Part shown: in pieces, positions 1,306 through 62,721 of the stretch | Numbering within the stretch: position 1 is the stretch's first letter | Layout of the letters: the number at the start of each line of letters is the position of its first letter | Origin: Vicinamibacterales bacterium | GTDB taxonomy: Bacteria > Acidobacteriota > Vicinamibacteria > Vicinamibacterales > 2-12-FULL-66-21 | Direction: 5' to 3' | Assembly (NCBI GenBank): GCA_036401215.1 | Contig: DASWVN010000164.1 | Span: 9,611 to 73,610 of the forward strand | DNA: 64,000 nucleotides | The notes under the pieces: generated by a model | The model's database searches: none | What the model was told of the DNA's origin: nothing | The model's input: only the letters and a program-made list of their open reading frames with translations | Position numbers and translations under genes: made by a program

Positions 1306-1500
1306 GGGTAGGGAACAGGGATCAGGGGACAGGGATCAGGGAACAGGGGACAGGGATCAGGGAACAGGGAACAGGGATGGGCTCACGTGAGACGCCCCCG
1401 CCGCTGTTCGTGCCTGCTTTCTGATCCCTACTCCCCGATCCCTACTTCCCGATCCCTGATCCCTGATCCCTACTCCCTGATCCCTGATCCCTGTTCCCTA
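1306..1500. repeat. Inverted array of GGGAWCA-type heptamers (G-rich arm 1306-1381, spacer 1382-1421, C-rich arm 1422-1500)
   Basis: Read directly. About 10 heptamer units per arm. The outer 19 nt TAGGGAACAGGGATCAGGG (1309-1327) is the exact reverse complement of 1482-1500. The spacer begins with the self-complementary CTCACGTGAG. Confidence 0.9.
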
Positions 1501-1692
1501 GTTGGGCAGCATCGTCCGCAGCTTCGCCTCGTCGGCGGCTGCCACGAGCGTCGTCCCCTTCAGCCCGCGCTTGCGGCTGCGGGTCTTGCTCGTGAGGATG
1601 TGGCGCTTGAACGCGCTGCTCCGCTTGAACTTTCCGGTGCCCGTCTTCTTGAACCGCTTGGCGGCCCCTCTATGCGTCTTCAGTTTCGGCAT
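1498..1692 (-). CDS. rpmI: 50S ribosomal protein bL35
   Basis: ORF track: [24 protein letters not shown]. An AAGGA SD lies upstream. Position between infC and rplT. Confidence 0.95.
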
Positions 1693-11034: not shown

Positions 11035-13248
11035 TCAGAACCGGAACCCCAAGGTGAGACTCCCGGACCTGCCAGGCGCATATACCCACCGGTTGTCCGG
11101 GCTCGCGTAGTAGTCGTCGTCGAGCAGATTGCGGACGATGCCGCGGAGTTCGAGGCTGCGGTTGAAGCGCCAGCCGGCGCTCAGGTCGATGACGGTGGAT
11201 CCCGGCGCTTCGATTTCACTCGGGCCCGGACGATCGTCGTCGGCCGTGAACGACGCGCGCGCTTGAGTCCAGAGACGCTCGGTGAAAGTCTTTCTTGCGA
11301 GGACGAACACCGTGTCGGCCGAGATGTCGTCGAGTGGCTGGTCGTCGTCGAGCGCCTTGCCCCGGCTGATGTTGAGCCCGGCCTCGACGGCAAGGCCGCG
11401 TCCCAGATCGCTGCGTGCCTCGAGTTCGAAGCCGCGGACCTGTGCACGGCCGCGGTTGCGGAAGAAGAAGAAGTCCTCCTCAGCCTGATAACGCTCGACC
11501 AGGTCGGTGATCCGGTAGTGATAGACGTAGGCGCCGAACTGCGTGCGGCCGAGCGTGTAGTGCGTGGCGAAATCGAACTGCAGGCTCGTCTCGGGATCGA
11601 GGTCCGGGTTGCCGGTGATGAAGCCGCGCCCCGACGGTCCGCGGAAGTAGCGGTCCGACAATGTGGGATCGCGGAACCCGCGTGAGACCTGGCCGGTGAA
11701 GCTGAGCCCGCTGAACGGGCCGACGGTTACCGCGCCGAAACCCGAAAACGCTCCGTTCGACGTGTCACGGTCCCCGAAGAATCCACCCACGTTCTTCGTC
11801 GTGACCCGATCGCCGCGGACGCCGGCAGAGAGGCGCAGGATCTCCGAGGCTGCGAGGTCTCCCTGGGCATAGACGCCCAGATCGACTTTCCGCGCCGAGT
11901 CGACCGACAGATTGTTCTCTTCCTCGATGAGTGAGCCGTCGGTCGCATACAGGATGTTCGTGTCGATGGCTTCGAGGCCGTAGCGGCCGTTCACGTCCAC
12001 ACCGAACTCGAGACGAGCGCGGGCGAGATTGCGCGTACCGCTCGCCTTGACGTGAAAGTCCTTCGCGCTGACGTCAGCGCGTTCGATGCTCCGCCCACTC
12101 GTCGCCGTCGCGAAGCGGTCCTGGTCGGTCCGTTGGTCGAAAGTCCCGACGAAGCCGGTGATCGTCAACTGCTGGAGACCCGCGACGCCCGCGACCTCAT
12201 ACGACGTGGTCATCCGGTGCGAATTTTCGTAGGGATAGTAGAAGCGAACGGTTCGCGAGTTGTTCCGCGGACGTTCGATGTCGCGGCCGAAATCGCTCTG
12301 CCACCCGGCCGAGAACAACCCTGGCCCGAGCTGATGGTCGAAGCGCGTCAGGAAGCCGCGATCTTCCCAGCCAGAATTGAAAACGCGCTCGTCGCTCACC
12401 GGGCTGGCCCAATCGTCGGCTTCGCGAGCGCGTCCCTGAAAGAGGATGCCGCCACGCTCGAAGCCCTGGGACACTTCGACTGTCCCACGGCGTTGAGGGA
12501 TGCCACCGCCCCAGGTGCCGCTGCCGCTGATGCGGAGGGGCGTTCCGGGCTGGGCGCGGCGCGTTCGCACAGACACGACGCCGCCGAGCGCGTCGGAGCC
12601 GTAGGCTACCGAACCTGGACCGCGCGCGACGTCGATTCGCTCGAACGACGCCGGGTCGGCGAACGTCGCGCTGGGTCCGACGCGGCGCTCCGACGTGACC
12701 CTGCCGCCATCGATCAGGACGAGCGTCCGTCCGCGCGCCAGACCACGGATCGCCGGCACGGTGGCGTGCCCCTCGGAAACGACGTTCACGCCCGGGACGG
12801 TTTCGAGCGCCTGCATGAGGTTCTCGGGCAGCCGGCTCGAAATCTGCGTGGTCGACATCATCGTCGCGGCAGAGGCCGCGGAGGATGTGATGCTCGGCGC
12901 CGAGCCAATGACCGTGATGGATTCTTCTTCGAACGGTGTGATGCGAATATCCGTGGGCTCGCCCGTCAACGTCGTCACGTCGACGGGCTGAGTCACGGCG
13001 CCGCCGGGGAGCACGACCACGATCTGGAAGGGCACGGCGGGTGGAGGGCCCCACGTGAACCTGCCGTCAGCATCGGTCCGCGCGGTCGCGGAGAAGCCTG
13101 GAATCGTGACCGTCGCCCCGGCGATCGGTTTGCCGGTCTCGGAGTCGATGACCCGACCGGCGAATGGTTGTTGAGCGTCGGTCAGGGTGGCGGCAGGTCC
13201 GAGGCAGGCCGCGACGACGATGACGAGCACCGAGGCAATCCGGAGCAT
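11035..13248 (-). CDS. TonB-dependent receptor with N-terminal carboxypeptidase-regulatory-like domain
   Basis: Signal peptide; GRVIDSETGKPIAGATVTIPG (CarbopepD_reg-like); plug motifs (IRGLARGRTLVLIDG); beta-barrel ending in LTLGFRF. Confidence 0.85.
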   Translation of the reverse strand: MLRIASVLVIVVAACLGPAATLTDAQQPFAGRVIDSETGKPIAGATVTIPGFSATARTDADGRFTWGPPPAVPFQIVVVLPGGAVTQPVDVTTLTGEPTDIRITPFEEESITVIGSAPSITSSAASAATMMSTTQISSRLPENLMQALETVPGVNVVSEGHATVPAIRGLARGRTLVLIDGGRVTSERRVGPSATFADPASFERIDVARGPGSVAYGSDALGGVVSVRTRRAQPGTPLRISGSGTWGGGIPQRRGTVEVSQGFERGGILFQGRAREADDWASPVSDERVFNSGWEDRGFLTRFDHQLGPGLFSAGWQSDFGRDIERPRNNSRTVRFYYPYENSHRMTTSYEVAGVAGLQQLTITGFVGTFDQRTDQDRFATATSGRSIERADVSAKDFHVKASGTRNLARARLEFGVDVNGRYGLEAIDTNILYATDGSLIEEENNLSVDSARKVDLGVYAQGDLAASEILRLSAGVRGDRVTTKNVGGFFGDRDTSNGAFSGFGAVTVGPFSGLSFTGQVSRGFRDPTLSDRYFRGPSGRGFITGNPDLDPETSLQFDFATHYTLGRTQFGAYVYHYRITDLVERYQAEEDFFFFRNRGRAQVRGFELEARSDLGRGLAVEAGLNISRGKALDDDQPLDDISADTVFVLARKTFTERLWTQARASFTADDDRPGPSEIEAPGSTVIDLSAGWRFNRSLELRGIVRNLLDDDYYASPDNRWVYAPGRSGSLTLGFRF

Positions 13249-19790: not shown

Positions 19791-19886
19791 CCTTCGACTC
19801 GCTGCGCTCGCTCAGGGCGAGCCCTTCGACTCGCTGCGCTCGCTCAGGGCGAGCCCTTCGACTCACTTCGTTCGCTCAGGGCAGGC
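19791..19886. repeat. Three tandem 32-nt units CCTTCGACTCGCTGCGCTCGCTCAGGGCGAGC
   Basis: Units at 19791-19822, 19823-19854 and 19855-19886 (the third diverged). Related 39-nt cores occur at 31057-31095 and 31131-31169, and a truncated copy near 27385-27405. Confidence 0.9.
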
Positions 19887-20204: not shown

Positions 20205-20285
20205 GCACGTAGCACCAGCACCAGCACGTAGCACCAGCACGTCGCACGTAGCACCAGCACGTCGCACGTCGCACGTCGCACGTGG
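20205..20285. repeat. Tandem GCACGTM / GCACCA 6-7-mer array
   Basis: GCACGTAGCACCAGCACCAGCACGTAGCACCAGCACGTCGCACGTAGCACCAGCACGTCGCACGTCGCACGTCGCACGTGG read directly. Confidence 0.9.
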
Positions 20286-22404: not shown

Positions 22405-22504
22405 AGCACCCCGATGCACCTTGAAGCACCCCGACGCACCCCGAGGCACCCTGATGCACCTTGAAGCACCCCGACGCACCCCGACGCACCCTGACGCACC
22501 TTGA
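22405..22504. repeat. Ten tandem 10-mers GCACCYYGAN (with a 40-bp higher-order period)
   Basis: gcaccccgat gcaccttgaa gcaccccgac gcaccccgag gcaccctgat gcaccttgaa gcaccccgac gcaccccgac gcaccctgac gcaccttgac. Confidence 0.95.
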
Positions 22505-28814: not shown

Positions 28815-31027
28815 GGGCCGCGCGCGCGCTGGTCACGGCGGCGGCCTGCCTCATCGTCGCGTCGGCTGCGACGGCACAGGTTCCCGACTGGCCGACCGAA
28901 CGTCCACCACGTCCGCTCCCGGCCAGGGACGTCACCTTTCCGCCCTACGAGATCCGGACGCTCCCGAACGGCCTGCAGGTCATCGCGGTTTCGCATCACG
29001 AGCAGCCGGCGGTCAGCCTGCGGCTGATCATTCGGGCCGGATCCGCGCAGGATCCCGACAAGAAGACCGGCCTGGCGAACCTCGCCGCTTCGCTTCTCGA
29101 TCAGGGCACGACGACGAAGAGCGCGGAGCAGGTGGCGCAGTCGATCGACTCGATCGGCGGGGCGCTCGGTGTCGGGGCAGGAACCGACCTCACGTCGATC
29201 TTCGCCGCCGTCATGCGGAACAGTCTCGACGTCGGGCTCGACATCATCGCCGACATCGCGCGAAACCCGTCATTCGATCCTCAGGAGATCGAGCGCCAGC
29301 GGCAGCAGATGATCTCGGCGATGAAGGTCAGCTACGAGGACCCGGATTATCTCGCGGCGAGCGTGTTCGAACGGCTCGTGTACGGCTTCCATCCGTACGG
29401 CAAGCCGGATGCGGGCACGCCCGCCTCGCTGGCGGCGATCACGCGTGAGGACCTCGTCGCCTTCCACAAGCGATACTTCGGTCCGAACAACGCGATCCTC
29501 GCGGTGGTCGGCGACGTCACGGCAGAACAGGCGTTTGCCGGCGCCGAACGCGCGTTCGGCAAGTGGGAGAAGATCGAGGTGCCGATCGCGCCGGCCGGGG
29601 ACGTTCCGCCACCGACCCGGCGCGTCGTCATTATCGACCGTCCGGGAGCGGTGCAGACCGAGATCCGCGTCGGCCACGTCGGGCTTCCACGCAAGCACAA
29701 GGACTATCTTGCGCTCGACCTGGCGCTGAAGATCCTCGGAGGCGAGGGCGGCAACCGCCTGCACCGCGTGCTGCGCAGCGAACGAGGATTGACCTACGGC
29801 GCCGAGGCCGACATCCACGCGCTGAAGGACGCCGGCCATATCGTAGCCAGCACCGACACGCGGTCCGACACGACGGCCGAAGCCTTGCGGCTGATCGTCG
29901 ACGAGTTCGCGCGGCTCCGCAGGGAGCGCGTGCACCCGCGCGAGCTGGGTGACGCCCAGGCCTATCTCACCGGGAGCTTCCCGCTGACGATCGAAACGCC
30001 CGGTGCCATCGCGCTGCAGGTGCTCAATGCCGTCGTATACGGGCTCGATCTCCAGGAGCTGCAGACCTACCGCGAGCGCGTCAACAGTATTACGCCGGAA
30101 GACATTCAGCGGGTGGCGCAACTCTATCTGCACCCGGACCGGCTCTCGATCGTACTGGTCGGCGACGCCAACGTGTTCGCGAAGCAGCTTCCGGCCGTCG
30201 GCTTCGATCAGGTTGAGCGGATTCCGCTCTCCCAACTCGATCTCACCGCCGTGGACTTGCGCGCCCCATCCCGCGCCACGCCCGCACGCCGGGAGCCGCT
30301 GCGATTCGGGCCGCAGCTGGTCCCGGCATCGTTCACGAGCACGGCGCCGGCCCCGCAACCCGACGACACCAGGCGGCTGATCGAGAAGGCCATCGATGCG
30401 AAGGGAGGGCTCGAACGCCTGCGTTCGATCAAGACCGTACGGTCCGACTCTGAACTGATTTTCGCCACGCCCTCCGGCAATGCGAAGGTCAAGACGAAAG
30501 CGTACGTGCGCTACCCGGGCCAGTTCCGCGTGGATGCGGAAGGCCCCGACGGTCTGCGGATCCAGACCTTCGACAACGGAAGCGCGTGGGTCGGCGACGG
30601 CACCGGCGTCGAGGACGCGCCGCCGATGATCGTACGGATCATGGAGGCGAGCATTCAGCGTGACACTGTCGGTCTGCTGCTCGCGCTGATCGACAAGCGG
30701 GTGGCCGGCCAGCGTCTGAGCGACGTGCAGTTCGACGGCAAGGCGTGCCCCGCGCTCGAAGTTCAACTGAATCCCGCCGGCCGCGTCGTCCTCATTTTCG
30801 ATCCGGCGACCGGCCTCCTGGTCCAGCAGCGCTATGGTGGAGACGCCACCGAGGCGGCGACCGAAGAGCGGTTCAGCGACTACCGTCAGGTGGAGGGCCT
30901 CCAGGTGGCCCACCGAGCCATCCTCAAGCGCGCAAACAATCCCCCAGTCGAACGCCTCGTCCGCACCTTCGAGATCAACGTCCCCATCGAAGCGTCGTTC
31001 TTCAAGAAACCCGCTGACCGTCACTGA
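28811..31027 (+). CDS. M16 family peptidase-like protein lacking HxxEH, with a ~250-aa C-terminal extension
   Basis: M16 fold (GLANLAASLLDQGT in place of HxxEH). After about residue 480 there is an extra beta-rich domain (KGGLERLRSIKTVRSDSELIF...YVRYPGQFRVDAEGPDG...) that resembles LolA/RseB-like modules. That resemblance is a guess. 4-nt overlap with the upstream M16 gene. Confidence 0.8.
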   Translation: MRAARALVTAAACLIVASAATAQVPDWPTERPPRPLPARDVTFPPYEIRTLPNGLQVIAVSHHEQPAVSLRLIIRAGSAQDPDKKTGLANLAASLLDQGTTTKSAEQVAQSIDSIGGALGVGAGTDLTSIFAAVMRNSLDVGLDIIADIARNPSFDPQEIERQRQQMISAMKVSYEDPDYLAASVFERLVYGFHPYGKPDAGTPASLAAITREDLVAFHKRYFGPNNAILAVVGDVTAEQAFAGAERAFGKWEKIEVPIAPAGDVPPPTRRVVIIDRPGAVQTEIRVGHVGLPRKHKDYLALDLALKILGGEGGNRLHRVLRSERGLTYGAEADIHALKDAGHIVASTDTRSDTTAEALRLIVDEFARLRRERVHPRELGDAQAYLTGSFPLTIETPGAIALQVLNAVVYGLDLQELQTYRERVNSITPEDIQRVAQLYLHPDRLSIVLVGDANVFAKQLPAVGFDQVERIPLSQLDLTAVDLRAPSRATPARREPLRFGPQLVPASFTSTAPAPQPDDTRRLIEKAIDAKGGLERLRSIKTVRSDSELIFATPSGNAKVKTKAYVRYPGQFRVDAEGPDGLRIQTFDNGSAWVGDGTGVEDAPPMIVRIMEASIQRDTVGLLLALIDKRVAGQRLSDVQFDGKACPALEVQLNPAGRVVLIFDPATGLLVQQRYGGDATEAATEERFSDYRQVEGLQVAHRAILKRANNPPVERLVRTFEINVPIEASFFKKPADRH

Positions 31028-31199
31028 TCCCGGACCCGGACCCCGGACTCTGGACCCCACCCTTCGACTCGCTCCGCTCGCTCAGGGCAGGCACCCCGGA
31101 CCCCGGACCGCGGACCGCGGACCGCGGACCCCACCCTTCGACTCGCTCCGCTCGCTCAGGGCAGGCACCCCGGACCGCGGACCGCGGACCGCGGACAGC
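31028..31199. repeat. 74-bp tandem duplication made of a 39-nt core plus CGGACCS heptamer runs
   Basis: The core CCACCCTTCGACTCGCTCCGCTCGCTCAGGGCAGGCACC occurs at 31057-31095 and 31131-31169. CCGGACC / CGGACCG heptamers lie before, between and after the cores. Confidence 0.9.
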
Positions 31200-31211
31200 G
31201 ATAATGTCTCC

Positions 31212-32351
31212 ATGCGCGTGATGATCTCCTGTGGCGAGCCGTCCGGCGATTTGTACGCCGGCGCGCTGGCGTCCGAGATCCTGCGTCTCGAACCTTCCGC
31301 AACGATCACCGGCTTTGGCGGGGATCGCCTCGCCGCCGCGGGGGCCGGGCTGGTCGGCAACTTCAGCGGGCTGTCGGTAACGGGTCTGCTCGAGGTCGTC
31401 CGGCTGCTGCCACGAACCTACGCCACCTACAAGCGGCTGCTTGCCGACGCCGACACGATCCGCCCCGACGTCTTCGTGGCGATCGATTTCCCCGACTTCA
31501 ACTTCACCGTGGCTCGCGCGATGAAGAAGCGCGGGATCCCCGTCGTCTACTACATCAGCCCGCAGCTCTGGGCCTGGCGGGCCGGACGCATGAAGACGAT
31601 GCAGCGCATCGTCGATCGGATGCTGGTGATCTTTCCGTTCGAGGAGCAGATCTACCGCGCCGCCGGCGTCCCCGTCGAGTGGGTGGGACACCCGCTCTTC
31701 GACGTGCAGCCGGCGCAACAGGAGCGCGAGCCCTTTCTGCGCTCGCAGGACCTGGATCCCTCGAGGCCGGTCCTGGCGTTGCTGCCCGGCAGCCGCACGA
31801 ACGAACTCCGCGCGATTCTGCCAACACTGGCGCAGGCCGTTCCGGCCATCCGGGCGCGCGTCCCGCAGGCGCAGTTCCTCGTGGCGCGTGCGCCGCATCT
31901 TCGCGACGACTTGTTCACGCCCTTTCGCGAGCTGCAATCGAACGGCACGACGCTCCTGATGGTGAATGGACATGCCGACGATGTGCTGGCATCTTCGGAC
32001 GCGGCCATCGTGGCGTCGGGAACCGTCACGGTGCAGGCGGCGCTGCACGAGTGTCCAATGGTGGTCGTGTACCGGTTGTCGCCGCTGACGTACCGCGTCG
32101 GCAAGCCGTTCGTTCGCGTCGACACCTACGCGATGGCAAATCTCGTGGCCGGCCGGCGGATCGTCCCTGAGCTGATCCAGGACGGATTCACGCCGGAGGC
32201 CGCGACGGCCGAAGCGGTCCGGCTGCTGAGCGACCGTGCGTACGCCGATCGCGTGCGCGCCGATCTGCGCGAGGTCCGGAGCAAGCTCGGCGGACCCGGC
32301 GCGAGCCGCCGCGCGGCGGAGGCGGTGCTGGAAGTTGCTCGCGGGAAGTAG
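31212..32351 (+). CDS. lpxB: Lipid-A-disaccharide synthase
   Basis: MRVMISCGEPSGDLYAG...DFPDFNF...YYISPQLWAWR...GHPL are LpxB motifs. The ORF track frame 30834.. is trimmed to this ATG. Confidence 0.92.
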   Translation: MRVMISCGEPSGDLYAGALASEILRLEPSATITGFGGDRLAAAGAGLVGNFSGLSVTGLLEVVRLLPRTYATYKRLLADADTIRPDVFVAIDFPDFNFTVARAMKKRGIPVVYYISPQLWAWRAGRMKTMQRIVDRMLVIFPFEEQIYRAAGVPVEWVGHPLFDVQPAQQEREPFLRSQDLDPSRPVLALLPGSRTNELRAILPTLAQAVPAIRARVPQAQFLVARAPHLRDDLFTPFRELQSNGTTLLMVNGHADDVLASSDAAIVASGTVTVQAALHECPMVVVYRLSPLTYRVGKPFVRVDTYAMANLVAGRRIVPELIQDGFTPEAATAEAVRLLSDRAYADRVRADLREVRSKLGGPGASRRAAEAVLEVARGK

Positions 32352-32588
32352 GGATCAGGGATCAGGGAACAGGGTGAAACTCCGAATTCTGAACTCCGAA
32401 CTCCGAACTGACTTCGAATTCATAGTTCGGAGTTCATAATTCGGAGTTCATAGTTCGGAGTTCATAGTTCGCAGTTTTACCCGGTTCCTCATCCCCGAGC
32501 CCCCCATTCCCCATTCCCGTCCCTGATCCCTGATCCCCGATCCCTGATCCCTGACCCCTGATCCCTGTTCCCCGTTCCCTGTTCCCTC
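32351..32588. repeat. Nested two-family palindrome: outer GGGAWCA arms (32351-32374 / 32521-32588), inner AACTCCGAA / TTCGGAGTTCATA arms (32375-32410 / 32425-32477)
   Basis: Read directly. The centre carries GAATTC twice (32384-32389, 32416-32421). Confidence 0.9.
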
Positions 32589-32597
32589 GTTCTACAC

Positions 32598-33155
32598 TTG
32601 GTCATGCGATTCGCCGCTGTTCTTGCTGCCCTGATCCTGTTCGCGTCTTCGCTTTCCGCGACCGTCCTGCTCCCGGCCGAATTCCGCGAGATCGTCAATG
32701 GCTCCCAGATCATCGTTTACGGCCGCATTACCGACGTCCGCGCGGAATGGACGGACGGCCGCCGCCGGATCGAGAGCGTCGTCACGCTGCAGGCCGCCGA
32801 TTTCTATCGGGGGACGCCCGCGGAGCGCGTGACGTTCCGCGTGCCCGGCGGTCAGATCGGACGATACAAGAGCGTCACCGTCGGCGCGCCGGAGTTTCGC
32901 GCGGGAGACGAAGTCGTCCTGTTCCTGAGAGCGCGAGGTCCGGCCGTCCCGCAGGTGTTTGGTTTGAACCAGGGGGTCTTTCGCGTTCGCGTGGATACGC
33001 GTACGGGCCGTCGCCTCGTCACGCAGCCCATCTTGACGGCCCGTGCGGAAGCGCCGGAGCCAGTCGTCCGCGGTGCCGCGAACCGGCAGCCATTACCGCT
33101 GGAGCAGTTCGCGACGCGAGTGCGCACGGCGTTGCGTCAGGGAGGCGTGCGATGA
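32598..33155 (+). CDS. Secreted hypothetical protein
   Basis: Signal peptide MRFAAVLAALILFASSLSA (the ATG at 32604 may be the true start). Its stop overlaps the start of the next gene (ATGA). Confidence 0.55.
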   Translation: MVMRFAAVLAALILFASSLSATVLLPAEFREIVNGSQIIVYGRITDVRAEWTDGRRRIESVVTLQAADFYRGTPAERVTFRVPGGQIGRYKSVTVGAPEFRAGDEVVLFLRARGPAVPQVFGLNQGVFRVRVDTRTGRRLVTQPILTARAEAPEPVVRGAANRQPLPLEQFATRVRTALRQGGVR

Positions 33156-34153
33156 CGCGCCGCACTGTGTGGCTTGCCATTGCCTTCGCACTGCTGGCGT
33201 CGAACGATCCGGCATCCGCATACTTGAAGCTCGGCACGACCCTCGACGACCGGACCGTGACCCTGCGCTGGGAGGAGTTTCCGATCCGCTACTTCGTCAC
33301 GGATGCCGCCGGGGGCGGCGTGAGCGCCACCCAGCTGCGCGATGCGGTCGCTGCGGCGTTCGACACGTGGCACGCGGTGGAGACCGCCGACACGTCGTCG
33401 GAGTTCGTCGGATTCACCAACGCGCGTCCGAATGAGGACGATGGACTGACCGTGATCGGGTTTCTGGACCGTCCCGACCAGGATCGAACGCTCGGCGCGA
33501 CCTCGTTCCTCATCGACACGCTCACCGGCGAGATCGTCGAGGCGGAGATCTTCCTCAACTCCTTTTTCGACTGGACGGTGACGCCGAGTCCGGGCGTCGA
33601 TCGCTTCGACGTCGAGTCGATCGCGCTGCACGAGATCGGACACCTGCTCGGCCTCGGTCATTCGGCGCTCGGCGAGACCGAACTGCGGAGCGGCGGACGA
33701 CGGGTGATCGCGGCCGAAGCGGTGATGTTTCCGGTGGCGTTCTCGCCGGGGAGCACGATCGGGCGAACGCTGCGCGCCGACGACATCGCCGGCATCTCCG
33801 ACATCTATCCCAACTCGGTATTCCGCCGGGAGCGGGGGAGCATCAGTGGCCGCGTGACCAAGTCGGGTCAGGGCGTGCTCGGCGTGCACGTGATCGCCTT
33901 CAACCCGAGCACCGGCCGGATGGTCGGAGGCTTTACGCTGAGCGATGACGGCCGCTTCGTCATAGGAGGACTGGAGCCGGGGCCACATGTGCTGCGTGTC
34001 GAACCGCTGGATGACGGAGACATCGAGAGCTTCTTCGATCTGACGCTGAACATCGATACCGACTTCCGGGCGAAGTTCCACGATCGCATCGTCGTCGTTC
34101 CGCGAGGCGGCGGCACGCGTGATGTGACCATCAGCGTGCAGCCGAAGAGTTGA
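33152..34153 (+). CDS. Matrixin (M10) family zinc metalloprotease with C-terminal carboxypeptidase-regulatory-like domain
   Basis: Signal peptide; HEIGHLLGLGH (HExxHxxGxxH); Met-turn region AVMFP; C-terminal GSISGRVT...GLEPGPHVLRVEP. Confidence 0.85.
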   Translation: MTRRTVWLAIAFALLASNDPASAYLKLGTTLDDRTVTLRWEEFPIRYFVTDAAGGGVSATQLRDAVAAAFDTWHAVETADTSSEFVGFTNARPNEDDGLTVIGFLDRPDQDRTLGATSFLIDTLTGEIVEAEIFLNSFFDWTVTPSPGVDRFDVESIALHEIGHLLGLGHSALGETELRSGGRRVIAAEAVMFPVAFSPGSTIGRTLRADDIAGISDIYPNSVFRRERGSISGRVTKSGQGVLGVHVIAFNPSTGRMVGGFTLSDDGRFVIGGLEPGPHVLRVEPLDDGDIESFFDLTLNIDTDFRAKFHDRIVVVPRGGGTRDVTISVQPKS

Positions 34154-36170: not shown

Positions 36171-38921
36171 ATGGCCTCGCTCAATTCCTTCAATTCGCGT
36201 CACCGTTTCACCGCCGGTGGCAGCTCCTTCGAGTTCTATAGCCTTCCGGCGCTCGAGCGCTCCGGCTATCCCGAAATCGCCAGGCTGCCGTACTCGCTCA
36301 AGATCCTGCTGGAGAACCTGCTGAGGCGCGAGGACGGGCGCTTCGTCAAAGGCGACCAGGTCGAAGCGCTGGCGCGGCGCGACGTGACCGCCGGTACACA
36401 CAAGGAAATTGCGTTCACGCCTGCGCGCGTTCTGTTGCAGGACTTCACGGGCGTTCCGGCCGTGGTCGATCTCGCGGCGATGCGCGACGGGATCGTGCGC
36501 CTCGGTGGCGACCCGGCGAAAGTCAATCCGCTGCAACCGGTCGAACTGGTCATCGACCACTCGGTGCAGGTCGATCACTACGCCGAACGAAACGCGGCCG
36601 ACCTGAACGCGGCGCTGGAGTTCGCGCGAAACAAGGAGCGGTACACGTTCCTCCGCTGGGGACAGGAGGCCTTCCGGAACTTCCGCGTCGTTCCGCCCGA
36701 CACCGGCATCGTCCACCAGGTGAACCTCGAATACCTGGCGCGCGTCGTCTTCCGCGAGGACTCGAACGGCGTCACGATCGCCTACCCGGACACGCTGGTC
36801 GGCACCGACTCCCACACCACGATGGTCAACGGGCTCGGCGTCGTCGGCTGGGGTGTCGGCGGCATCGAGGCGGAGGCGGCAATGCTGGGGCAGCCGATCT
36901 CGATGCTCATTCCCGACGTGATCGGCTTCCATCTCGTGGGACGTCTTCCCGAAGGCGCAACCGCGACGGACCTCGTGCTCACGATCACGGAACGGCTCCG
37001 CAAGTTCGGCGTCGTCGGCAAGTTCGTCGAGTTCTTCGGACCCGGCCTCGAGTCGCTGACCATTGCCGACCGTGCCACGCTCGGCAACATGTCGCCCGAG
37101 TACGGCGCGACGATCGCCATCTGCCCGATCGACGACATGACGCTCGACTACCTGCGGCTCACCGGCCGTGACGAGGCGCACGTGCAGCTCGTCGAGGCGT
37201 ACGCGAAGGAGCAGGGGCTGTTCAGCGGCGCCGGCGCGCCGGAGCCGGTCTACACGGCGACGATCGAGCTGGATCTTTCGACCGTCGAACCCAGCCTCGC
37301 CGGACCGAAGCGTCCGCAGGACCGCGTGTCGCTCCGCCAGGCGAAGAGCAAATTCGAGCAGGCGCTCGCCTCGATGCTGACCGACGGCAAAGCGGCGGCG
37401 CCGGCGGCGGCCGCCAGGCCGGGCGACGCGGCACCGGCGGCGGCATCCGCCGCGAGCGCCGCGGCGACCGCCACGCTCGAGCTGACCCCCGAGATCGACG
37501 ATCTCGATCATGGATCGGTCGTCGTCGCGGCGATCACGAGCTGTACGAACACGTCCAATCCGAGCGTCATGATCGGCGCCGGCCTGCTGGCGCGCAACGC
37601 GGTCCAGCGCGGGTTGACGGTGAAGCCATGGGTGAAGACGAGTCTCGCGCCGGGCTCGCTCATCGTCACCGAGTACTACAAGGCCTCTGGGCTGCTCCAG
37701 TACCTCGAGAAGCTCGGGTTCCACGTCGTCGGGTATGGGTGCACGACCTGTATCGGCAACAGCGGCCCGCTGCCCGACGAGGTGTCGAAGGCGGTCAGGG
37801 ACAAGAACCTCGTCGTCGTGTCGGTGTTGAGCGGCAACCGGAACTTCGAAGGACGCATCCAGTCGCAGGTGCGCGCGAACTACCTGGCCTCTCCGCCGCT
37901 GGTCGTCGCGTATGCGATCGCCGGGAAGATGCAGATCGATCTCACCAGCGAGCCGCTGGGCATCGGATCCGACGGCAAGCCGGTGTATCTGAAGGACATC
38001 TGGCCGTCGGAGCGCGAAATCCAGGAAACGATGCTCAAGTCGGTGAAGACCGAGATGTTCCAATCGAAGTACTCGGAAGTCTTCGACGGCGACGAGCGGT
38101 GGCGCGAGCTGCCGGTGCCGACGGGCGAGCAGTTCGCGTGGGACGATGAGTCGACCTACATCCGCAATCCTCCGTTCTTCGAGGGGATCACGCCCGAGCC
38201 TGCGGCGCCGGCCGACATCACGGGAGCGCGCGTGCTCGCCCTGCTCGGCGACAGCGTCACGACCGACCACATTTCACCGGCGGGAGCGATCCCGGCCGAC
38301 AGCCCCGCAGGGCAGTACCTCATCTCGAAGGGCGTGAAGCCGCGCGACTTCAACTCCTACGGCGCACGCCGCGGGAACCACGAAGTGATGATGCGCGGCA
38401 CGTTCGCCAACATCCGCCTCCGGAACCAGCTCGCGCCCGGCACCGAGGGGGGCTGGACGTCGCTGTTGCCGGACGGCGAGGTGATGAGCATCTACGATGC
38501 GTCGGTGAAATACCGCGAGCGCAACGTGCCGCTGGTCGTGATCGCGGGCAAGGAGTACGGCTCGGGCTCCTCGCGCGACTGGGCGGCGAAGGGCACGCTG
38601 CTGTTGGGGGTCAAGGCGGTCATTGCCGAGAGCTTCGAGCGCATTCACCGCAGCAATCTCGTCAACATGGGGATCCTCCCGCTGCGCTTCAAGGACGGCG
38701 AGACTGCTGCATCCCTGAAGTTGACGGGACGCGAGACGATCGAGATCCTGGGGCTGACCGATTCGCTGAAGGCTGGAGCGGAACTGACGGTGCGCGCCAC
38801 GGGTGAGGACGGCGCCGTTCGGGAGTTCACGGCGATTGCGCGGATCGATACGCCCGAGGAACTGGTCGCGTTCCGGCACGGAGGGATCCTGCCGTACGTG
38901 CTGCGGCAGCTGACGAAGTAG
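36171..38921 (+). CDS. acnA: Aconitate hydratase A
   Basis: 916 aa with full AcnA/IRP-type architecture: [45 protein letters not shown]. Confidence 0.95.
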
Positions 38922-39021
38922 GGAACAGGGAATAGGGACCAGGGATCAGGGAATAGGGATGGGGGGGGAATGGGGGATGAGGGTTACCCATCCCTCATGC
39001 CCCGTCCCCCATTCCTACTCC
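38921..39021. repeat. GGGAWYA heptamer array (38921-38982) with a short complementary C-rich arm (38990-39021)
   Basis: GGGAACAGGGAATAGGGACCAGGGATCAGGGAATAGGGATGGGGGGGGAATGGGGGATGAGGG ... ATCCCTCATGCCCCGTCCCCCATTCCTACTCC. Confidence 0.9.
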
Positions 39022-39028
39022 AGCCACC

Positions 39029-41876: not shown

Positions 41877-42118
41877 GGTGCTGCGTGCTGGGGTGCTGGG
41901 TGCTACGTGCCCGTCGGTGCTGAGTGCTCGGTGCGGTGCTGGGTGCAAGGTGCCGGGGTGCTTCGTGCAAGTGCCGGGTGCTACGTGCTGGTGCGGTGCT
42001 GGGTGCTGGTGTGGTGCTACGTGCACCCAGCACCGGGCACAGCACCCAGCACCGGGCACCGCACCAGCACCGGGCACCGCCCGGCACCCAGCACCCAGCA
42101 CCCAGCACCCAGCACCCG
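41877..42118. repeat. ~240-nt palindrome of GGTGCTG-type heptamers (left arm 41877-42024, right arm CAGCACC 42028-42118)
   Basis: Read directly. The apex lies at GTGCAC near 42022-42027. The right arm ends in five perfect CAGCACC units. Confidence 0.9.
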
Positions 42119-49743: not shown

Positions 49744-50118
49744 CTATCCCCGCGAAGGAGCCGGTAACGGGATCCACTCGGGCGGAGGGGTGATCTCGGT
49801 GGCGGGCGTGTTGCCCGGATCCGGGCGTCCGCTGCCGGTGAGGCGGCTGATCGCGCGGACGGTCATGTCGTGATCGCAGGGGATCTGGCAGGAGAGGCGC
49901 ACGCCCGTGACGCCCTTCGTGGCCAGCACCTGCTGTTCCGCGACCGTCATCCGGTCGGGCTCGCCTTCGATGAACTCGACCCGGCATGTCGTGCAGCGTG
50001 CGTTCCCTCCGCACGCATGAAGAATGTCAACCTTCGCGTCCTGCTCGATGGCGAGGACCAGGCGTTTTCCATGTTCGATGTCGAACGTTCCGAACCCTTC
50101 AACGGTCAGTTTTGGCAT
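49744..50118 (-). CDS. 2Fe-2S ferredoxin
   Basis: HACGGNARCTTCRV...LSCQ cysteine pattern (C-x4-C-x2-C...C). Confidence 0.85.
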   Translation of the reverse strand: MPKLTVEGFGTFDIEHGKRLVLAIEQDAKVDILHACGGNARCTTCRVEFIEGEPDRMTVAEQQVLATKGVTGVRLSCQIPCDHDMTVRAISRLTGSGRPDPGNTPATEITPPPEWIPLPAPSRG

Positions 50119-50145
50119 AGAGAAGCATCATAACGTTCGCACGCT

Positions 50146-50333
50146 GAAACTCCGAACTATGAACTCCGAACGATGAACTGCGGAAACTCCGAACTATGAA
50201 CGCCGAACTATGAACTACAGAAACTCCGAACTGTGAACGCCGAACTATGAACTACGGAAACTCCGAACTATGAACGCCGAACTATGAACTGACGGCGCCA
50301 GTTCTGAGTTCGGCGTTCTGAGTTCGGAGTTTT
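50146..50333. repeat. Four tandem ~37-nt units built from AACTCCGAACTATG / AACGCCGAACTATG sub-repeats (50146-50294), plus one inverted arm (50301-50333)
   Basis: Read directly. The reverse complement of the right arm matches each unit at about 28 of 32 positions. Confidence 0.9.
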
Positions 50334-51996
50334 ACGCGGCCTGGGCTTTGTGCAGTTCCGCGGCTCGCTCGAGCGCCACGAGGATGTTCACGCAGATGTT
50401 GCCCTCGCCGACATGGCGATGGAACTCCGCCTGGCGCATGACTGCGGCCGGCTGCTCGCGGGCGCCGCAGAAGAGGATCGTCCGGCCGGAAGCCTGGACG
50501 CGGTCCGCGACTTCCTCGAGGGCCTTGAGTCCGGTGGCATCCAGCGCGGTCATGTTGCGGAGCCGGACGATGACGATCGGCGGCAGCCGGTCGACGCTGT
50601 CGGCGATCACCGCCACCTTGTCGGTCACGCCGAACAGCAGCGGCCCGTGGACCCTGAAGATCGCCACGTAGGACGGAATGTTCTTGTCCTGCAGGCTGTG
50701 CGCGCGGCTCGACTCGATGTAGTCCGACGTCACCATCGACACCGTCGTCGTGGCCGACACGCGGCGGATGTAGAGGAACGCGGCGAGGATCATCCCGACT
50801 TCGACCGCCACGGTGAGATCGGCGGAGACGGTCAGCGCGAAGGTGACGAGCCAGACGCTGATGTCGGTCTTGGTCATCTTCAGCAGCTGCGGGATCTCGT
50901 GCCACTCGCCCATGTTGTAGGCGACCACGAAGAGGATCGCCGCGAGCACGGCCATCGGGATGTAGCTGGCGAGCGGCGCGGCGGCCAGCAGGACCACCAG
51001 CAGCGTGACCGCGTGGATCATGCCCGCTATCGGAGTGCGGGCGCCCGCGCGGATGTTGGTCGCCGTCCGCGCGATCGCCCCCGTCGCCGGAAGGCCGCCG
51101 AAAATCGGGGACGCAATGTTCGCCACACCCTGGCCGATCAGTTCGACGTTCGGATTGTGCCGGTCGTTGCCCATCCGGTCGGAGACGACCGCTGACATCA
51201 GCGACTCGATCGCGCCGAGCGCCGCGACGGTGAGGGCCGGCCTGAGCAGCGACGGGATCAGGCCCGCCTCGAACTTCGGGAAGGTCGGATCCGGCAGGCC
51301 TCCAGGGATGCCGCCGAATCGGGATCCGATGGTGTCGATATCGAGCCCGAACGCCACCGCCGCAACGGTGCCGCCCAGCAGGGCGATGATGGTTCCCGGC
51401 ACCCGCGGCGCCACCTTGCGCAGCACGATGATGGTCGCGAGGGAGACGATCGCCAGGACCGTCGCCGCGGGAGAAATCGTGCCCGCATGCTGCACGAGGG
51501 CCGCCATGCGCTGCGCGAACTCCGAGGGGACCTCCGCCATGGAGATCCCGAAGAAATCGCGAATCTGAGTGCTCGCGATCAGCACGGCGATGCCGTTGGT
51601 AAAGCCAATGACGACCGGCCGCGGCAGGTATTTGACCGCCGCCCCCATGCCGGTGGCGCCGAGGATCAGGAGGATGACGCCGGCCATCATCGTGACCATG
51701 TAGAGGCCGGCCACGCCGAACTCCGCCACGATCCCCGCGACGACGACCACGAACGCACCCGTGGGGCCGCCAATCTGATAGCGGGATCCGCCGAGCGCGG
51801 AAATCAGGAATCCGGTGACGATGGCGCAGTAGATGCCGGCCTGCGGGGTGAGACCCGAGGCGATGGCGAACGCCATGGCGAGCGGCAGCGCGACCAGGCC
51901 GACGGTGACGCCAGCACTCAGGTCGTGCGCAAACGTCGATAACGAATAGTTTTTCAGCGCCAGCACCGAGGCCGGCGCCCAACGCGAAAACTTCAT
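50332..51996 (-). CDS. SulP family anion (sulfate/bicarbonate) transporter with STAS domain
   Basis: 554 aa; about 11 TM helices; SulP motifs (GLVALPLAMAFAIASG, GGPTGAF); C-terminal STAS (VIVRLRNMTALDATGLKALEEV). Confidence 0.9.
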   Translation of the reverse strand: MKFSRWAPASVLALKNYSLSTFAHDLSAGVTVGLVALPLAMAFAIASGLTPQAGIYCAIVTGFLISALGGSRYQIGGPTGAFVVVVAGIVAEFGVAGLYMVTMMAGVILLILGATGMGAAVKYLPRPVVIGFTNGIAVLIASTQIRDFFGISMAEVPSEFAQRMAALVQHAGTISPAATVLAIVSLATIIVLRKVAPRVPGTIIALLGGTVAAVAFGLDIDTIGSRFGGIPGGLPDPTFPKFEAGLIPSLLRPALTVAALGAIESLMSAVVSDRMGNDRHNPNVELIGQGVANIASPIFGGLPATGAIARTATNIRAGARTPIAGMIHAVTLLVVLLAAAPLASYIPMAVLAAILFVVAYNMGEWHEIPQLLKMTKTDISVWLVTFALTVSADLTVAVEVGMILAAFLYIRRVSATTTVSMVTSDYIESSRAHSLQDKNIPSYVAIFRVHGPLLFGVTDKVAVIADSVDRLPPIVIVRLRNMTALDATGLKALEEVADRVQASGRTILFCGAREQPAAVMRQAEFHRHVGEGNICVNILVALERAAELHKAQAA

Positions 51997-52081: not shown

Positions 52082-52522
52082 ATGGCGGAAACCCTCATGC
52101 GAGAGATTTTGCTGCACGGCAGTCCGACGGAGGCGTTCGACCGCTCCGTCGTCTTTGCGCGAAAGATGGCCGAATCCTTCGGTGCGCGGCTCCACGTGCT
52201 CTACACGATCGAGGATCCCCTGTCGGCCGGCTGGACGGCCGAAGTCAGCGCCGAACGGCTCCCCGAAGTGCACGAGGCGATGGAGGCGGAAGCCCGCGAG
52301 CGGCTGGCGCGCTTCATTCCGCCCGGGGATCAGGAGCGTCTGGGCGTGCGGGTGGCGCTCACGCATGGTCCCGCCGGCGACGAGCTGGTTCGCTACACGG
52401 CCGAGAACGATATCGATCTGGCGATCGTCCAGGCGCGTGTCGGCGACAGGAAGGATCCCGATATCGACTACGCGCATGCGCTGCTGGAACGCGGTCGCTG
52501 CGCGGTCTTGATGCTCCGATAG
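52082..52522 (+). CDS. Universal stress protein (UspA family)
   Basis: Usp fold motifs ...LHVLYTIEDP...ENDIDLAIV... Confidence 0.75.
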   Translation: MAETLMREILLHGSPTEAFDRSVVFARKMAESFGARLHVLYTIEDPLSAGWTAEVSAERLPEVHEAMEAEARERLARFIPPGDQERLGVRVALTHGPAGDELVRYTAENDIDLAIVQARVGDRKDPDIDYAHALLERGRCAVLMLR

Positions 52523-52627
52523 GGATCAGGGATCAGGGATCAGGGAACAGGGAACAGGGAGTAGGGATCAGGGATCAGGGATCAGGGATCAGGGATCAGG
52601 ATCAGGGATCAGGGATCAGGGTAAGGG
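52522..52627. repeat. Single-orientation array of ~15 GGGATCA/GGGAACA heptamers filling the usp / aat convergent spacer
   Basis: Read directly. One unit is shortened to 6 nt (GGATCA). No complementary arm is present. Confidence 0.95.
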
Positions 52628-53215: not shown

Positions 53216-53277
53216 CGAATCGGGCGTCCACTGCGCCGCTGGCTCCGTCCGGAGGCACGCCTCGTTCCCTGATCCCG

Positions 53278-53667
53278 TCAGTGCACCGTGTAGGGTTCGC
53301 TGAGCGTGAACGGCGCGATCTTCGCATCGAACCGCTCGCCGGTCTCCGCCACCATCTGGTAGGTCCCTTCCATCACCCCGAACGCCGTCGTCAGCGGACA
53401 CCCGGACGTATACACGAAAGACTCGCCCGGTTTCAGAATCGGTTGCTTCCCGACGACACCGGGGCCACGCACCTCCTCGACCTTGCCGTCGCCGTCGGTG
53501 ATGATCCAGTGACGGGTGAGCAGCTGGACCGTCTCGGACCCCTCGTTCGAGATCCGGATGGTGTAGAGAAAGAACCACTGGCTGCGGCCTGGCTCCGAGC
53601 GGTCTGGATCGAACTGCGACTCGACGTGCACCCTGACGCCGCGGGTGACCGCTTCCGAGGTAAACAT
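53278..53667 (-). CDS. apaG: ApaG (DUF525) protein
   Basis: VRVHVESQFDPDRSEPGRSQWFFLYTIRISNEG...LLTRHWIITDGDG...VRGPGVVGKQP...F.YTSG. The ORF track frame is trimmed to MFTSEAV. Confidence 0.88.
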   Translation of the reverse strand: MFTSEAVTRGVRVHVESQFDPDRSEPGRSQWFFLYTIRISNEGSETVQLLTRHWIITDGDGKVEEVRGPGVVGKQPILKPGESFVYTSGCPLTTAFGVMEGTYQMVAETGERFDAKIAPFTLSEPYTVH

Positions 53668-61780: not shown

Positions 61781-62668
61781 GTGCCCTTTCTTTCGGCCCT
61801 CGCCTCCGTTGTACTCGTGGTCGTTGCCGCGCAGGCGGTCCCCATGAGCGGGTACGTGCCCGAACGCGTCTACGACACGACACGGAACGCGTTCTCGGAT
61901 TTCGAAGTCATGCTCGCCGACCTTGCGACCGCCGACGTCGTGTTCGTCGGCGAGCAGCACGACGATCCGAACACGCACCGGTTGGAGGTGGCGATCCTCG
62001 AAGGGCTGAAGCAGAGAAAAGTCCCGCCGGTCGTCTCGCTGGAAATGTTCGAGCGGGACGTGCAGAGCGTGCTGGACGCCTATCTCTCGGGCTCCGCGTC
62101 CGAGGAAGAGTTGCTGAAGACCGCGCGTCCGTGGCCGCGGTACAAGACGGACTATCGCGGATTGGTCGAACTCGCGAAGGCCAATGGCTGGCCCGTGATT
62201 GCGGCGAACGTTCCGCGGCGGATTGCCGCCGCCGTCGCGAAAGCAGGCAGCGATGCGGTGGCGCAGCTGCCCGCGGACGACCGCGCGCTGGTGGCGAAAG
62301 AGCGGCAGTGCCCTGAGGACGCGTACTTCGAGCGGTTTGCAAAGACGATGGCGGGGCATCCCGCGCCGAACCAGACGCCGGACGAGCAACGCGCCATGAT
62401 TCTGCGCTACTACTGGTCCCAGTGCGTGAAGGACGAGACCATGGCCGAATCGATCGCCAGCGCCGTCGAGCGTGGAATTCCCGTCGTGCACTACAACGGC
62501 GCGTTCCACAGCGACTTCGGTCTCGGCACCGCCGAACGCGTCCGCCGGCGTCTTCCCGGCAAACGCATCGTCGTCATCTCGATGCTGCCGGTCGAGAACC
62601 TCGATCGGCTCGAGCCCGCCGGCGAGGACCTCCTGCGCGCCGACTATCTCGTCTACACGACAAAGTAA
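61781..62668 (+). CDS. ChaN-like (haem-binding uptake, Tiki-superfamily) protein
   Basis: VFVGEQHDDPNTHRLE...SLEMFERD...WP.Y..DYR.L.E.A......V.AAN.PR. Confidence 0.7.
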   Translation: MPFLSALASVVLVVVAAQAVPMSGYVPERVYDTTRNAFSDFEVMLADLATADVVFVGEQHDDPNTHRLEVAILEGLKQRKVPPVVSLEMFERDVQSVLDAYLSGSASEEELLKTARPWPRYKTDYRGLVELAKANGWPVIAANVPRRIAAAVAKAGSDAVAQLPADDRALVAKERQCPEDAYFERFAKTMAGHPAPNQTPDEQRAMILRYYWSQCVKDETMAESIASAVERGIPVVHYNGAFHSDFGLGTAERVRRRLPGKRIVVISMLPVENLDRLEPAGEDLLRADYLVYTTK

Positions 62669-62721
62669 ACTCCAAACTCCAGACCTTAAGACTTGGGCGT
62701 TGGGAATTGGGAGTTGGGAGC
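62667..62721. terminator. Short imperfect hairpin of AAACTCC / TTGGGAG heptamers between convergent stop codons (candidate bidirectional terminator)
   Basis: AAACTCCAAACTCCAGACC-TTAAG-ACTTGGGCGTTGGGAATTGGGAGTTGGGAG. It fills the spacer exactly between TAA (62666-62668) and TAA (complement of 62722-62724). There is no T-tract. Confidence 0.4.

Follow-up and report, generated by a model that had tools for sequence, protein, structure and literature searches.

The spacer downstream of lpxB, the gene for lipid-A-disaccharide synthase, in a soil acidobacterium of the Vicinamibacterales (Acidobacteriota; G+C, ~66%) holds two palindromes built of tandem heptamers, one inside the other. We analyzed this locus within the 64,000-nucleotide (nt) stretch of DNA that we call the window. 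An earlier note on this DNA had described the nest and read it as a hint that such arrays arise by insertion. The spacer, read directly in the window, is 252 nt long; it runs from the lpxB stop codon, TAG at 32349 to 32351, to the ATG at 32604 of a gene for a 183-amino-acid protein that has a signal-peptide-like N terminus and no Pfam match. Its anatomy was also read directly from the sequence, and Tandem Repeats Finder (TRF) and a repeat finder gave the same arrays and inverted pairs (Table 1). The nested-locus observation was confirmed, with three corrections, and the insertion reading was partly supported.

Table 1. Features of the nested lpxB spacer and of related repeat loci in the window
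Feature	Positions	Strand	Basis or remark
lpxB (lipid-A-disaccharide synthase) coding sequence	31212..32351	+	Translation; PF02684 (Pfam) in identical and related proteins; orthologues found in 80 Vicinamibacterales genomes
Outer G arm, GGGATCA GGGATCA GGGAACA GGG	32351..32374	+	Direct read, TRF, repeat finder; 3.4 units
Inner element, left end and arm: TGA plus five heptamers (AACTCCG AATTCTG AACTCCG AACTCCG AACTGAC)	32375..32412	+	Colinear with the L221 minimal element
Inner hairpin loop (approximate), TTCGAA	32413..32418	+	RNA fold
Inner element, right arm and end: four TTCATAGTTCGGAG 14-mers, then GCAGTTTTAC (short T tract) ending GTTTTAC	32419..32480	+	TRF, repeat finder
Degenerate CCCNNNN heptamers, the older, inner portion of the C arm	32481..32519	+	Family D1; TRF CCCCATT x2.4
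Outer C arm, 9.7 regular CCCTGAT/CCCTGTT units complementary to the G arm	32520..32588	+	TRF, repeat finder; identical in L098
TACACT-N5-ATG: -10-like box and start codon of the 183-amino-acid protein gene	32593..32606	+	Sequence and alignment; putative promoter function
Copy B of the inner family	50145..50335	.	Between SulP stop (50332-50334, minus) and Fer2 start (50118)
GGGAWCA/TGWTCCC palindrome, 41-nt nonrepeat center, TAG…CTA at both ends	1309..1500	.	Motif matches
GGGAWYA array fused to aconitase TAG, then older G-rich/C-rich hairpin core	38919..39015	+	Core retained in L091
Single-armed GGGATCA array, 14.6 units, fused to TAG, between convergent genes	52520..52621	+	TRF, motif matches

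As had been claimed, the lpxB TAG is fused to three GGGAWCA units, and it supplies the first bases of the first one. The opposite arm, put at ten CCCTGAT/CCCTGTT units, measures close to that number. The first correction concerns the inner palindrome, described as centered on two GAATTC sites: its center lies near 32413, the sites at 32384 and 32416 are asymmetric about it, and the first of them reads GAACTC in L081 (NCBI GCA_964618375.1; L-numbers denote contigs or assemblies used for comparison). The second concerns a supposed 43-nt C-rich linker, which really consists of degenerate CCCNNNN heptamers of the C arm. This stretch can be parsed as CCGGTT CCTCATC CCCGAGC CCCCCATT CCCCATT CCCG, it matches the C arm in register at 70 to 78% identity (repeat finder), and once its heptamers are counted, the full C arm comes to ~15 units. 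By eye, it closely resembles the reverse complement of 38950-38985, the degenerate inner part of another G arm. A possible remnant in it, “CGAGCCCCCCA ~ CGAAGCCCCCGCA,” was too weak to use. The third concerns the unequal arms (24 versus 68 nt), an inequality that stands in the window but not as a fixed property, since L081 carries ten G units.

The motif GGGAWCAGGGAWCA, with at most one mismatch, gave 36 matches against 0.08 expected, and AACTCCGAACTNNG gave 18 against 0.31. RNA folding, a check that the earlier note had proposed, predicted a stable structure: the whole spacer folded as a single coaxial nested hairpin at -115.6 kcal/mol (z = -8.5), and the inner element alone folded at -59.7 kcal/mol (z = -9.8). 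The four G3 tracts of the G arm make a minimal G-quadruplex motif (G3N4 x4) on the sense strand. At the gathering threshold, the sole Rfam match in the window was a tRNA, with none in the spacer; at permissive E-values, the spacer matched only microRNA-hairpin models, with 24 to 29 bits versus thresholds of 57 to 100.

The inner palindrome had been assigned to the same 14-mer family as a second locus near 50 kb, and this held, with the bounds of that locus at 50145 and 50335. We call the lpxB spacer element copy A and the second locus copy B. The copy B site offers a series of states among relatives. L222 (88% SulP identity) has no AACTCCG element there, and the rest of its spacer cannot be aligned. 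In L221 (92%), a minimal palindrome of ~85 nt reads TGA AACTCCG AACTACG AATGCCG AACTCAG AACTGCT, then a short loop, the five complementary heptamers, and GTTTTAC. In L219, L220 (both 100%), and the window, the distal arm is amplified in 37-nt units of five heptamers, so that in copy B the long arm has four such units and the short arm has five heptamers. SulP is 553 to 554 amino acids long in all relatives, and the position of its stop is therefore native.

Copy A is colinear with the L221 minimal element, with the same TGA/AACTCCG start and the same AGTTTTAC end. It also has features in common with copy B, namely a five-heptamer arm ending AACTGAC and the AACTCCGAACTATG 14-mer in the long arm. 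The family ends, T[GA]AAAC … GTTT[TC]A, place an A tract and a T tract on either side of a long stem. Neither terminal triplet of copy A (TGA; TAA in the reverse complement) is a stop in use, which fits a copy from a site where the triplet was a stop; in copy B, the matching triplet is the SulP stop. From these likenesses, the inner element is probably a copied-in member of the family. We rejected the idea that copy B is flipped relative to L221 (TGA and TAA ends swapped), as the AACGATG and AAYGCCG markers lie on the same sides.

A pattern scan of metagenomes for AACTCCG arrays returned 80 loci, all from other organisms, with none from this genome and none with GGGAWCA. About 22 unrelated metagenome contigs with a GC content of 0.44 to 0.50 (L100, L103, L110, L111, L114, L129, L137, L141, L142, L144, L147, L161, and L163 among them) carry a hairpin of TAGTTCGGAGTAATTAGTTCGGnGTTCGGAG, ~12 A/T-rich nt, and AAACTCCGAACTCTGAACTCCGAACTCATAACT, and other metagenome contigs carry GAACNNN-type heptamer arrays. 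Judging by such matches, AACTCCG-type heptamer hairpins are widespread beyond the Vicinamibacterales.

The two families had been called independent, and each is indeed found alone at other loci of the window. GGGAWCA occurs without AACTCCG at 1309-1500, 38919-39015, 52520-52621, and 53263-53276, and AACTCCG occurs without GGGAWCA at 50145-50335. Rather than standing together everywhere, the pattern that the earlier note had set against its own reading, the families occur separately and the composite at one locus. We saw the composite only at the lpxB locus and in its sister assembly. The independence of the families and the single composite argue that the structure is not a composite unit, and we consider it very improbable that the whole 238 nt is one mobile element, miniature inverted-repeat-like and flanked by TA. 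TA does flank several GGGAWCA arrays (1309-1500, 38919-39015, and 52520-52623). However, those flanks are explained by TAG/TAA stops, the right flank of the nested structure is TCG, arm lengths vary, and none of the 80 metagenome AACTCCG loci has GGGAWCA beside it. Two specific candidates were also rejected: a TA-duplicating (IS630-like) element, because the TA belongs to stop codons and is absent at the right end of the locus, and an IS608-type TTAC target, because TTAC lies inside the 3' end of the element and not on its 5' flank.

Stop codons mark the outer family throughout the window. Its arrays begin at TAG at 1309, 32349, 38919, and 52520 and also on the minus strand at 1500, where the CTA is a stop only if a weak call for a 64-amino-acid gene (1498..1692, minus) is real. 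GTAG, the end type known from REP palindromes, precedes three of the five G arms, but the TAG there is the stop codon. G and C arms are paired at 1309-1500, 32351-32588, and 38919-39015. At 53259-53280 (minus), two GGGATCA/GGGAACG units directly follow a TGA, and this may be a nascent or decayed array of the outer family. The aconitase-QueG spacer is informative about growth: the 87% relative L091 has just TAG GAGTGGGGAATGGGGGATGAGG… with the old G-rich core, and in the window, the TAG is separated from that same core by five or six regular GGGAWYA units. This comparison indicates that the array grew in place, at the edge nearest the stop codon.

Change by whole units is also seen at lpxB. L081, whose LpxB is 100% identical to that of the window, has ten GGGAWCA units in its G arm versus three, an exact 49-nt (7-unit) difference, and after the arm, it keeps the window junction of GGG with TGAAACTCCG (GGG/TGAAAC). 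As this difference occurs at identical LpxB, the inequality of the arms is copy-number variation. Whole-unit length differences between close assemblies are what slippage repeats predict. Copy B, with identical flanking proteins, is 23 nt longer in the window than in L219, consistent with 37 minus 14, and the unit number of the ACCGCGG arrays upstream of lpxB is likewise not the same in the window and L081. Taken together, the 49-nt difference, the units added at 38919, and the TAGGG found at the lpxB stop in an 87% relative argue that slippage is the main driver of the outer family.

The contig of L081 ends in the inner palindrome, and L098 (Logan SRR11285378) starts within the C arm and does not differ from the window beyond that point. 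These two assemblies therefore carry the left and right halves independently, and the structure is not an artifact of one assembly. Repeat-induced misjoining would draw on the fact that short-read contigs break in the arrays (the end of L081 and the start of L098) and on the different gene that L081 has upstream of the lpxB leader repeats. We think this explanation highly unlikely, because three independent assemblies agree base for base over both halves and over the junction of the G arm with the inner element, and L219 spans copy B.

The leader repeats themselves contain a 32-nt motif, CCCTTCGACTCGCTSCGCTCGCTCAGGGCAGGC, interleaved with CCCGGAC/ACCGCGG heptamers at 31029-31200 and 19791-19882; immediately upstream of lpxB it makes up a 74-nt tandem repeat, and at 19791 an array of three copies. 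Other Vicinamibacterales (L061:18660-18740 and L077:17389) have the motif too, as does L081 (4561-4690), and the counts of interleaved heptamers differ between the window and L081. The other gene upstream of these repeats in L081 reflects either a rearrangement or a repeat-induced misjoin.

We compared the orthologous spacer across 80 species (genome contigs) and the nearest protein relatives at 100, 90, and 87% identity. Most of the 80 species keep lpxB and the downstream gene in this order, usually with a spacer of ~9 nt, TAGACTGC-N4-ATG, that has the lpxB stop inside a -10-like TAGACT. The nearest relatives of the window have TACACT-N5-ATG in common with it but other fillings: the 90% LpxB group (L082-L087) has four copies of a 21- to 23-mer, CCGCACCCTCAGCGTCAGC, the 87% group (L088-L097) has one or two, and L002 (79%) has nine GCACCNN heptamers. 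Neither GGGAWCA nor AACTCCG was found in the lpxB spacer of these closest relatives (87 to 90% LpxB identity), and the window spacer aligned with those of its relatives only over TACACT…ATGCG. It follows that all 238 nt of the structure arose in the lineage of the window itself. The earlier note had proposed looking in relatives for versions that lack the inner element; no relative had the outer arms only or the inner element only.

Elsewhere in the clade, the same spacer is filled with other repeats. Other species have CCCTTTT, AACCGCC, CCAATGC, or a TGATTCA/CAAATCA palindrome, and nested palindromes also occur at this spacer in L047, L057, and L036. The L036 spacer (11158-11675) is 516 nt long and has arms of CACAGAAAAA / TTCTGTG-type 10-mers; the translation of its central segment ends AFIERFYDRERLHSSLNCQSP and weakly matches the tail of rve_3 (integrase core) at E = 0.07, below the Pfam cut-off. 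The center of this palindrome may be an insertion-sequence relic. At L002:10892-10985 and L036:11100-11160, arrays reach into the 3' end of lpxB, which makes the predicted protein longer, by ~10 residues in L002 and with the tail …GTQVIATEEHR in L036. On these two gene predictions, arrays can overrun the original stop codon.

To place the locus among repeats of the clade, we surveyed 81 genome pieces, the window and 80 related species (L001-L080, 1.42 Mb). At one threshold, period-7 arrays numbered 12 in the window and 67 in the 1.42 Mb of relatives, and each of the other periods from 4 to 15 numbered 0 to 7. The units are diverse, with ~60 canonical heptamers among 82 arrays. Nearly all of the arrays (75 of 82) lie outside called genes, in stop/start (47), stop/stop (16), or start/start (6) contexts, and in codirectional gaps, the median distance of the array complex is 10 nt to the upstream stop and 41.5 nt to the downstream start. 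Of 35 arrays abutting a stop codon, 16 have one that is an in-register version of the unit with one mismatch, compared to 9.5% for the other six registers (p ≈ 3e-8); the substitutions are TAG for CAG, TGA for TCA, and TAA for CAA. Some units contain a stop triplet themselves (L072 TAGTCAG, L036 TGATTGC, L065 TGATTCA, and L022 GTAGCCC). Together with the exact 49- and 23-nt differences and the units added at 38919, this phasing points to slippage in place as the chief process behind the arrays.

Such findings could be taken to mean that both families arose on the spot by slippage alone, with their likeness to other loci due to a mutational or selective bias for certain heptamers. The unit at a given spacer does vary from species to species, the local stop codon often seeds it, and AACTCCG-type arrays occur in unrelated metagenome contigs with a GC content of 0.37 to 0.69. 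Nevertheless, we regard this account as improbable. Copy A and copy B/L221 have nonrepeat landmarks in common (TGA-, -TTAC, and AACTGAC), along with the five-heptamer arm and AACTCCGAACTATG, and there is no stop at 32375 or 32480 to seed the T[GA]A ends. In addition, array pairs more than 600 nt apart have units within one mismatch of each other in 17.6% of cases within a genome piece versus 5.3% between genomes.

On balance, we favor the interpretation that the two heptamer palindromes differ in origin, the outer having grown in place and the inner having been copied in, at the tip of the outer hairpin. The outer (GGGAWCA)n … (TGWTCCC)n would be a simple-sequence array that grew from G-rich sequence beside the lpxB stop and whose unit number changes by replication slippage. 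The inner would be a copy of an ~85-nt family made up of T[GA]AAAC, five AACTCCG/AACTNNG heptamers, a short loop, the complementary five, and GTTTTAC. This copy would have come to rest at the tip of the outer hairpin, where its own arms also expand by slippage; insertions at a tip would survive since the outer stem is extended and not broken. Both palindromes would have arrived after the split from relatives ~10% diverged in protein sequence, leaving intact only the lpxB stop, the -10-like box, and the ATG of the next gene. The earlier inference from nesting to insertion thus has support for the inner element, which looks copied in, but not for arrays generally, which bear signs of slippage in place, and insertion would explain only part of what is seen.

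Several findings weigh against our interpretation. No target-site duplication, which the earlier note had suggested looking for, is visible at 32374/32375 or 32480/32481, and no transposase is linked to the element in the window. The flanks of copy A, GGG and CCG, are complementary and not direct repeats, and the CGC/CGC of copy B is a 3-nt match of no weight. No intermediate state was seen at the lpxB spacer among the relatives surveyed, and insertion at the tip was not directly observed. Only two copies of the inner family come from the window's genome; their common end sequences are short, ~9 to 10 nt beyond the repeat unit, and could reflect a common function (A and T tracts) and not common descent. 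A terminator and promoter consensus scan of 31000-33200 gave 0 matches. Many arrays in the clade are single-armed (52520-52621, L002, and L041). Finally, metagenome assemblies were used throughout, so the contrast of 3 versus 10 units could partly be assembly collapse.

The nest alone neither shows that arrays arise by insertion nor tells which part came first: a G/C hairpin may already have been present when the inner element entered its tip, or the arms may have grown around that element. In the second order, an AACTCCG terminator-like hairpin would have come first after lpxB, the G array would have grown by slippage from the native TAGGG, and the C arm would have been made, and its complementarity maintained, by intrastrand template switching across the hairpin, a process that lengthens a palindrome outward. 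Regular units do lie nearest the genes and degenerate ones nearest the center (32481-32519; 38919), and the 87% relative already has the TAGGG at its lpxB stop. Complementarity also runs past the stop into coding sequence, as GAAGTAG and CTCGTTC pair at 5 of 7 positions (pair I5) and, in L221, CGCG/TGA pairs with TTAC/GCG; at 1309-1500, TAG…CTA stands at both ends, of which one at most is a stop. This complementarity past stops, in a few cases, hints at template switching. We hold the inner-first order to be possible but rather unlikely. Relatives at 87 to 90% lack AACTCCG here, so at this site the inner element does not predate the outer; the order of ATC and AAC unit variants in the arms is not mirrored, contrary to simple fold-back copying; and such template switching is not known from this group.

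With our favored interpretation still in place for this locus, a broader idea can be stated, one that we offer as speculation and do not expect to hold. A process at gene 3' ends in the Vicinamibacterales, and perhaps in many soil bacteria, might build heptamer palindromes outward from the stop codon by 7-nt slippage and hairpin template switching, giving terminator-like modules that are copied to other gene ends and home to hairpin tips. If this were true, the nested locus would be a snapshot of the cycle, and the signature of the process would be stop phasing, vestigial stops at both ends of a palindrome, and stems that reach a few bases into coding sequence.

Placed between a stop codon and a conserved -10-like box close before an ATG, the stem-loop 3' of lpxB could act, if as anything, as a putative terminator, insulator, or mRNA stabilizer. 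The predicted hairpins are followed by UUUUAC (RNA fold and sequence). Like two-way intrinsic terminators, the inner element has an A tract, a GC-containing stem, and a T tract directly after codirectional or convergent stops, and the stop overlaps the A tract. Unlike them, it has a stem of 30 to 60 bp rather than 5 to 15 bp and a T tract of only 3 to 4 nt, and the consensus scan was empty. Single-armed arrays are common, and a hairpin is therefore not a general requirement; together with the rapid turnover, they suggest that much of this repeat DNA is tolerated and not selected.

Dispersed intergenic palindromes at gene 3' ends are familiar from REP, BIME, and REPIN sequences and from the Correia elements of Neisseria. 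Their RNA stem-loops can terminate transcription or stabilize mRNA, and they are known insertion targets. Unlike REP, BIME, and REPIN sequences, the arms in the window are tandem heptamers of variable number, with no conserved REP-like sequence and no target-site duplication. Miniature inverted-repeat transposable elements differ in the same respect, as our inner element has inverted ends but lacks a target-site duplication. The short tandemly repeated repetitive (STRR) heptanucleotides of heterocystous cyanobacteria have been reported to carry small dispersed repeats inside them. They resemble the present case in having several intergenic heptamer families per genome and small mobile repeats nested in repeats, and they differ in phylum and in units, whereas the window arrays are palindromes fused to stops.

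The closest described parallels are the G-rich heptamer repeats of Xanthomonas and Nostoc, of the GGGNATC type (Rehm et al. 2015, PMC4692102). These have 2 to 26 units, with a copy number that varies between close relatives; ~90% are intergenic, mostly within 50 bp of a stop or overlapping it and less often between divergent genes; and they often form convergent inverted pairs with G-quadruplex potential and no established function (PMC4692102). The window arrays are similar in their G3 7-nt units, present at least twice (3.4 units at 32351-32374 and 14.6 at 52520-52621), in being intergenic and fused to stops (lpxB, 38919, and 52520), and in their convergent pairs of G and C arms. Their unit, however, is GGGAWCA and not GGGAATC or GGGGAYT, and it misfits (GGGANTN)n, as position 6 is C. 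The host is also an acidobacterium, with many unrelated heptamer families mostly unable to form quadruplexes and a second family nested in the tip. Geobacter metallireducens has heptanucleotide families as well, GGACCGG with 49 copies and MTYCTGA in paired strand-switching sites, whose function is not established (PMC2700814). Their heptamers stand four or five in tandem, in some cases within genes, and were proposed to be regulator binding sites (PMC2700814); unlike the window arrays, these elements have a fixed small copy number, and no nesting was described. We found no paper on such repeats in the Vicinamibacterales in the library searched. Rather than a new kind of element, the locus is a local example of the unstable heptamer-repeat DNA known from Xanthomonas, Nostoc, and Geobacter.

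Taken alone, this double hairpin in a single spacer of an uncultured soil bacterium is a curiosity. It is of value as a clearly resolved case of noncoding DNA turnover in the Vicinamibacterales, in which spacers of 9 nt in most species are filled by heptamer arrays within ~10% protein divergence; the units vary between species, and the arrays start at the stop codon and are of unequal length in assemblies whose proteins are identical. The arrays break short-read contigs and can mislead gene callers (the lpxB 3' end in L002 and L036), and they could serve as strain markers. The stop phasing and the series of absent, minimal, and expanded states provide material for testing why bacterial repeats favor a 7-nt unit.

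At its right edge, after the C arm, the spacer reads CGTTC, TACACT, TGGTC, and ATG, with TACACT 5 nt before the start codon. Among relatives, nothing else of the spacer than this box and the ATG is conserved (mostly as TAGACTGC-N4-ATG), and TACACT is a putative -10-like promoter box of the downstream gene. Boxes of this kind, a few bases before the ATG and too close for a ribosome-binding site, are found in the lpxB spacers of most species (L001-L097) and overlap the lpxB stop in most. On the minus strand, the Fer2 gene has TATGAT-N8-ATG before the start of its ferredoxin-domain protein (50118-50135). A -10-like box directly before the ATG suggests leaderless transcripts.

Other gene ends in the clade are rich in similar structures. 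The aconitase-QueG spacer (window 38922-39028) is a second hot spacer, with heptamer arrays right after the aconitase stop in at least seven species; these are mostly palindromic, and their units differ by species (L030, L032, L036, L039, L061, L071, L072, and L091). A third, ~6.5 kb upstream of lpxB and in front of a gene that follows GCTATCGTC, is found in L003, L030, and L042 and, by position, probably also in L032, L037, and L039. Further gene-end repeat structures in the window, at 41877-42117, 62665-62724, 20205-20283, and 22405-22504, include a GGTGCTG/GCACCCA palindrome between convergent genes, a GCACGTA/GCACCAG array, a 10/20/40-nt GCACCCCGAC array, and an AAACTCC/TTGGGAG palindrome with both arms starting at a TAA stop.

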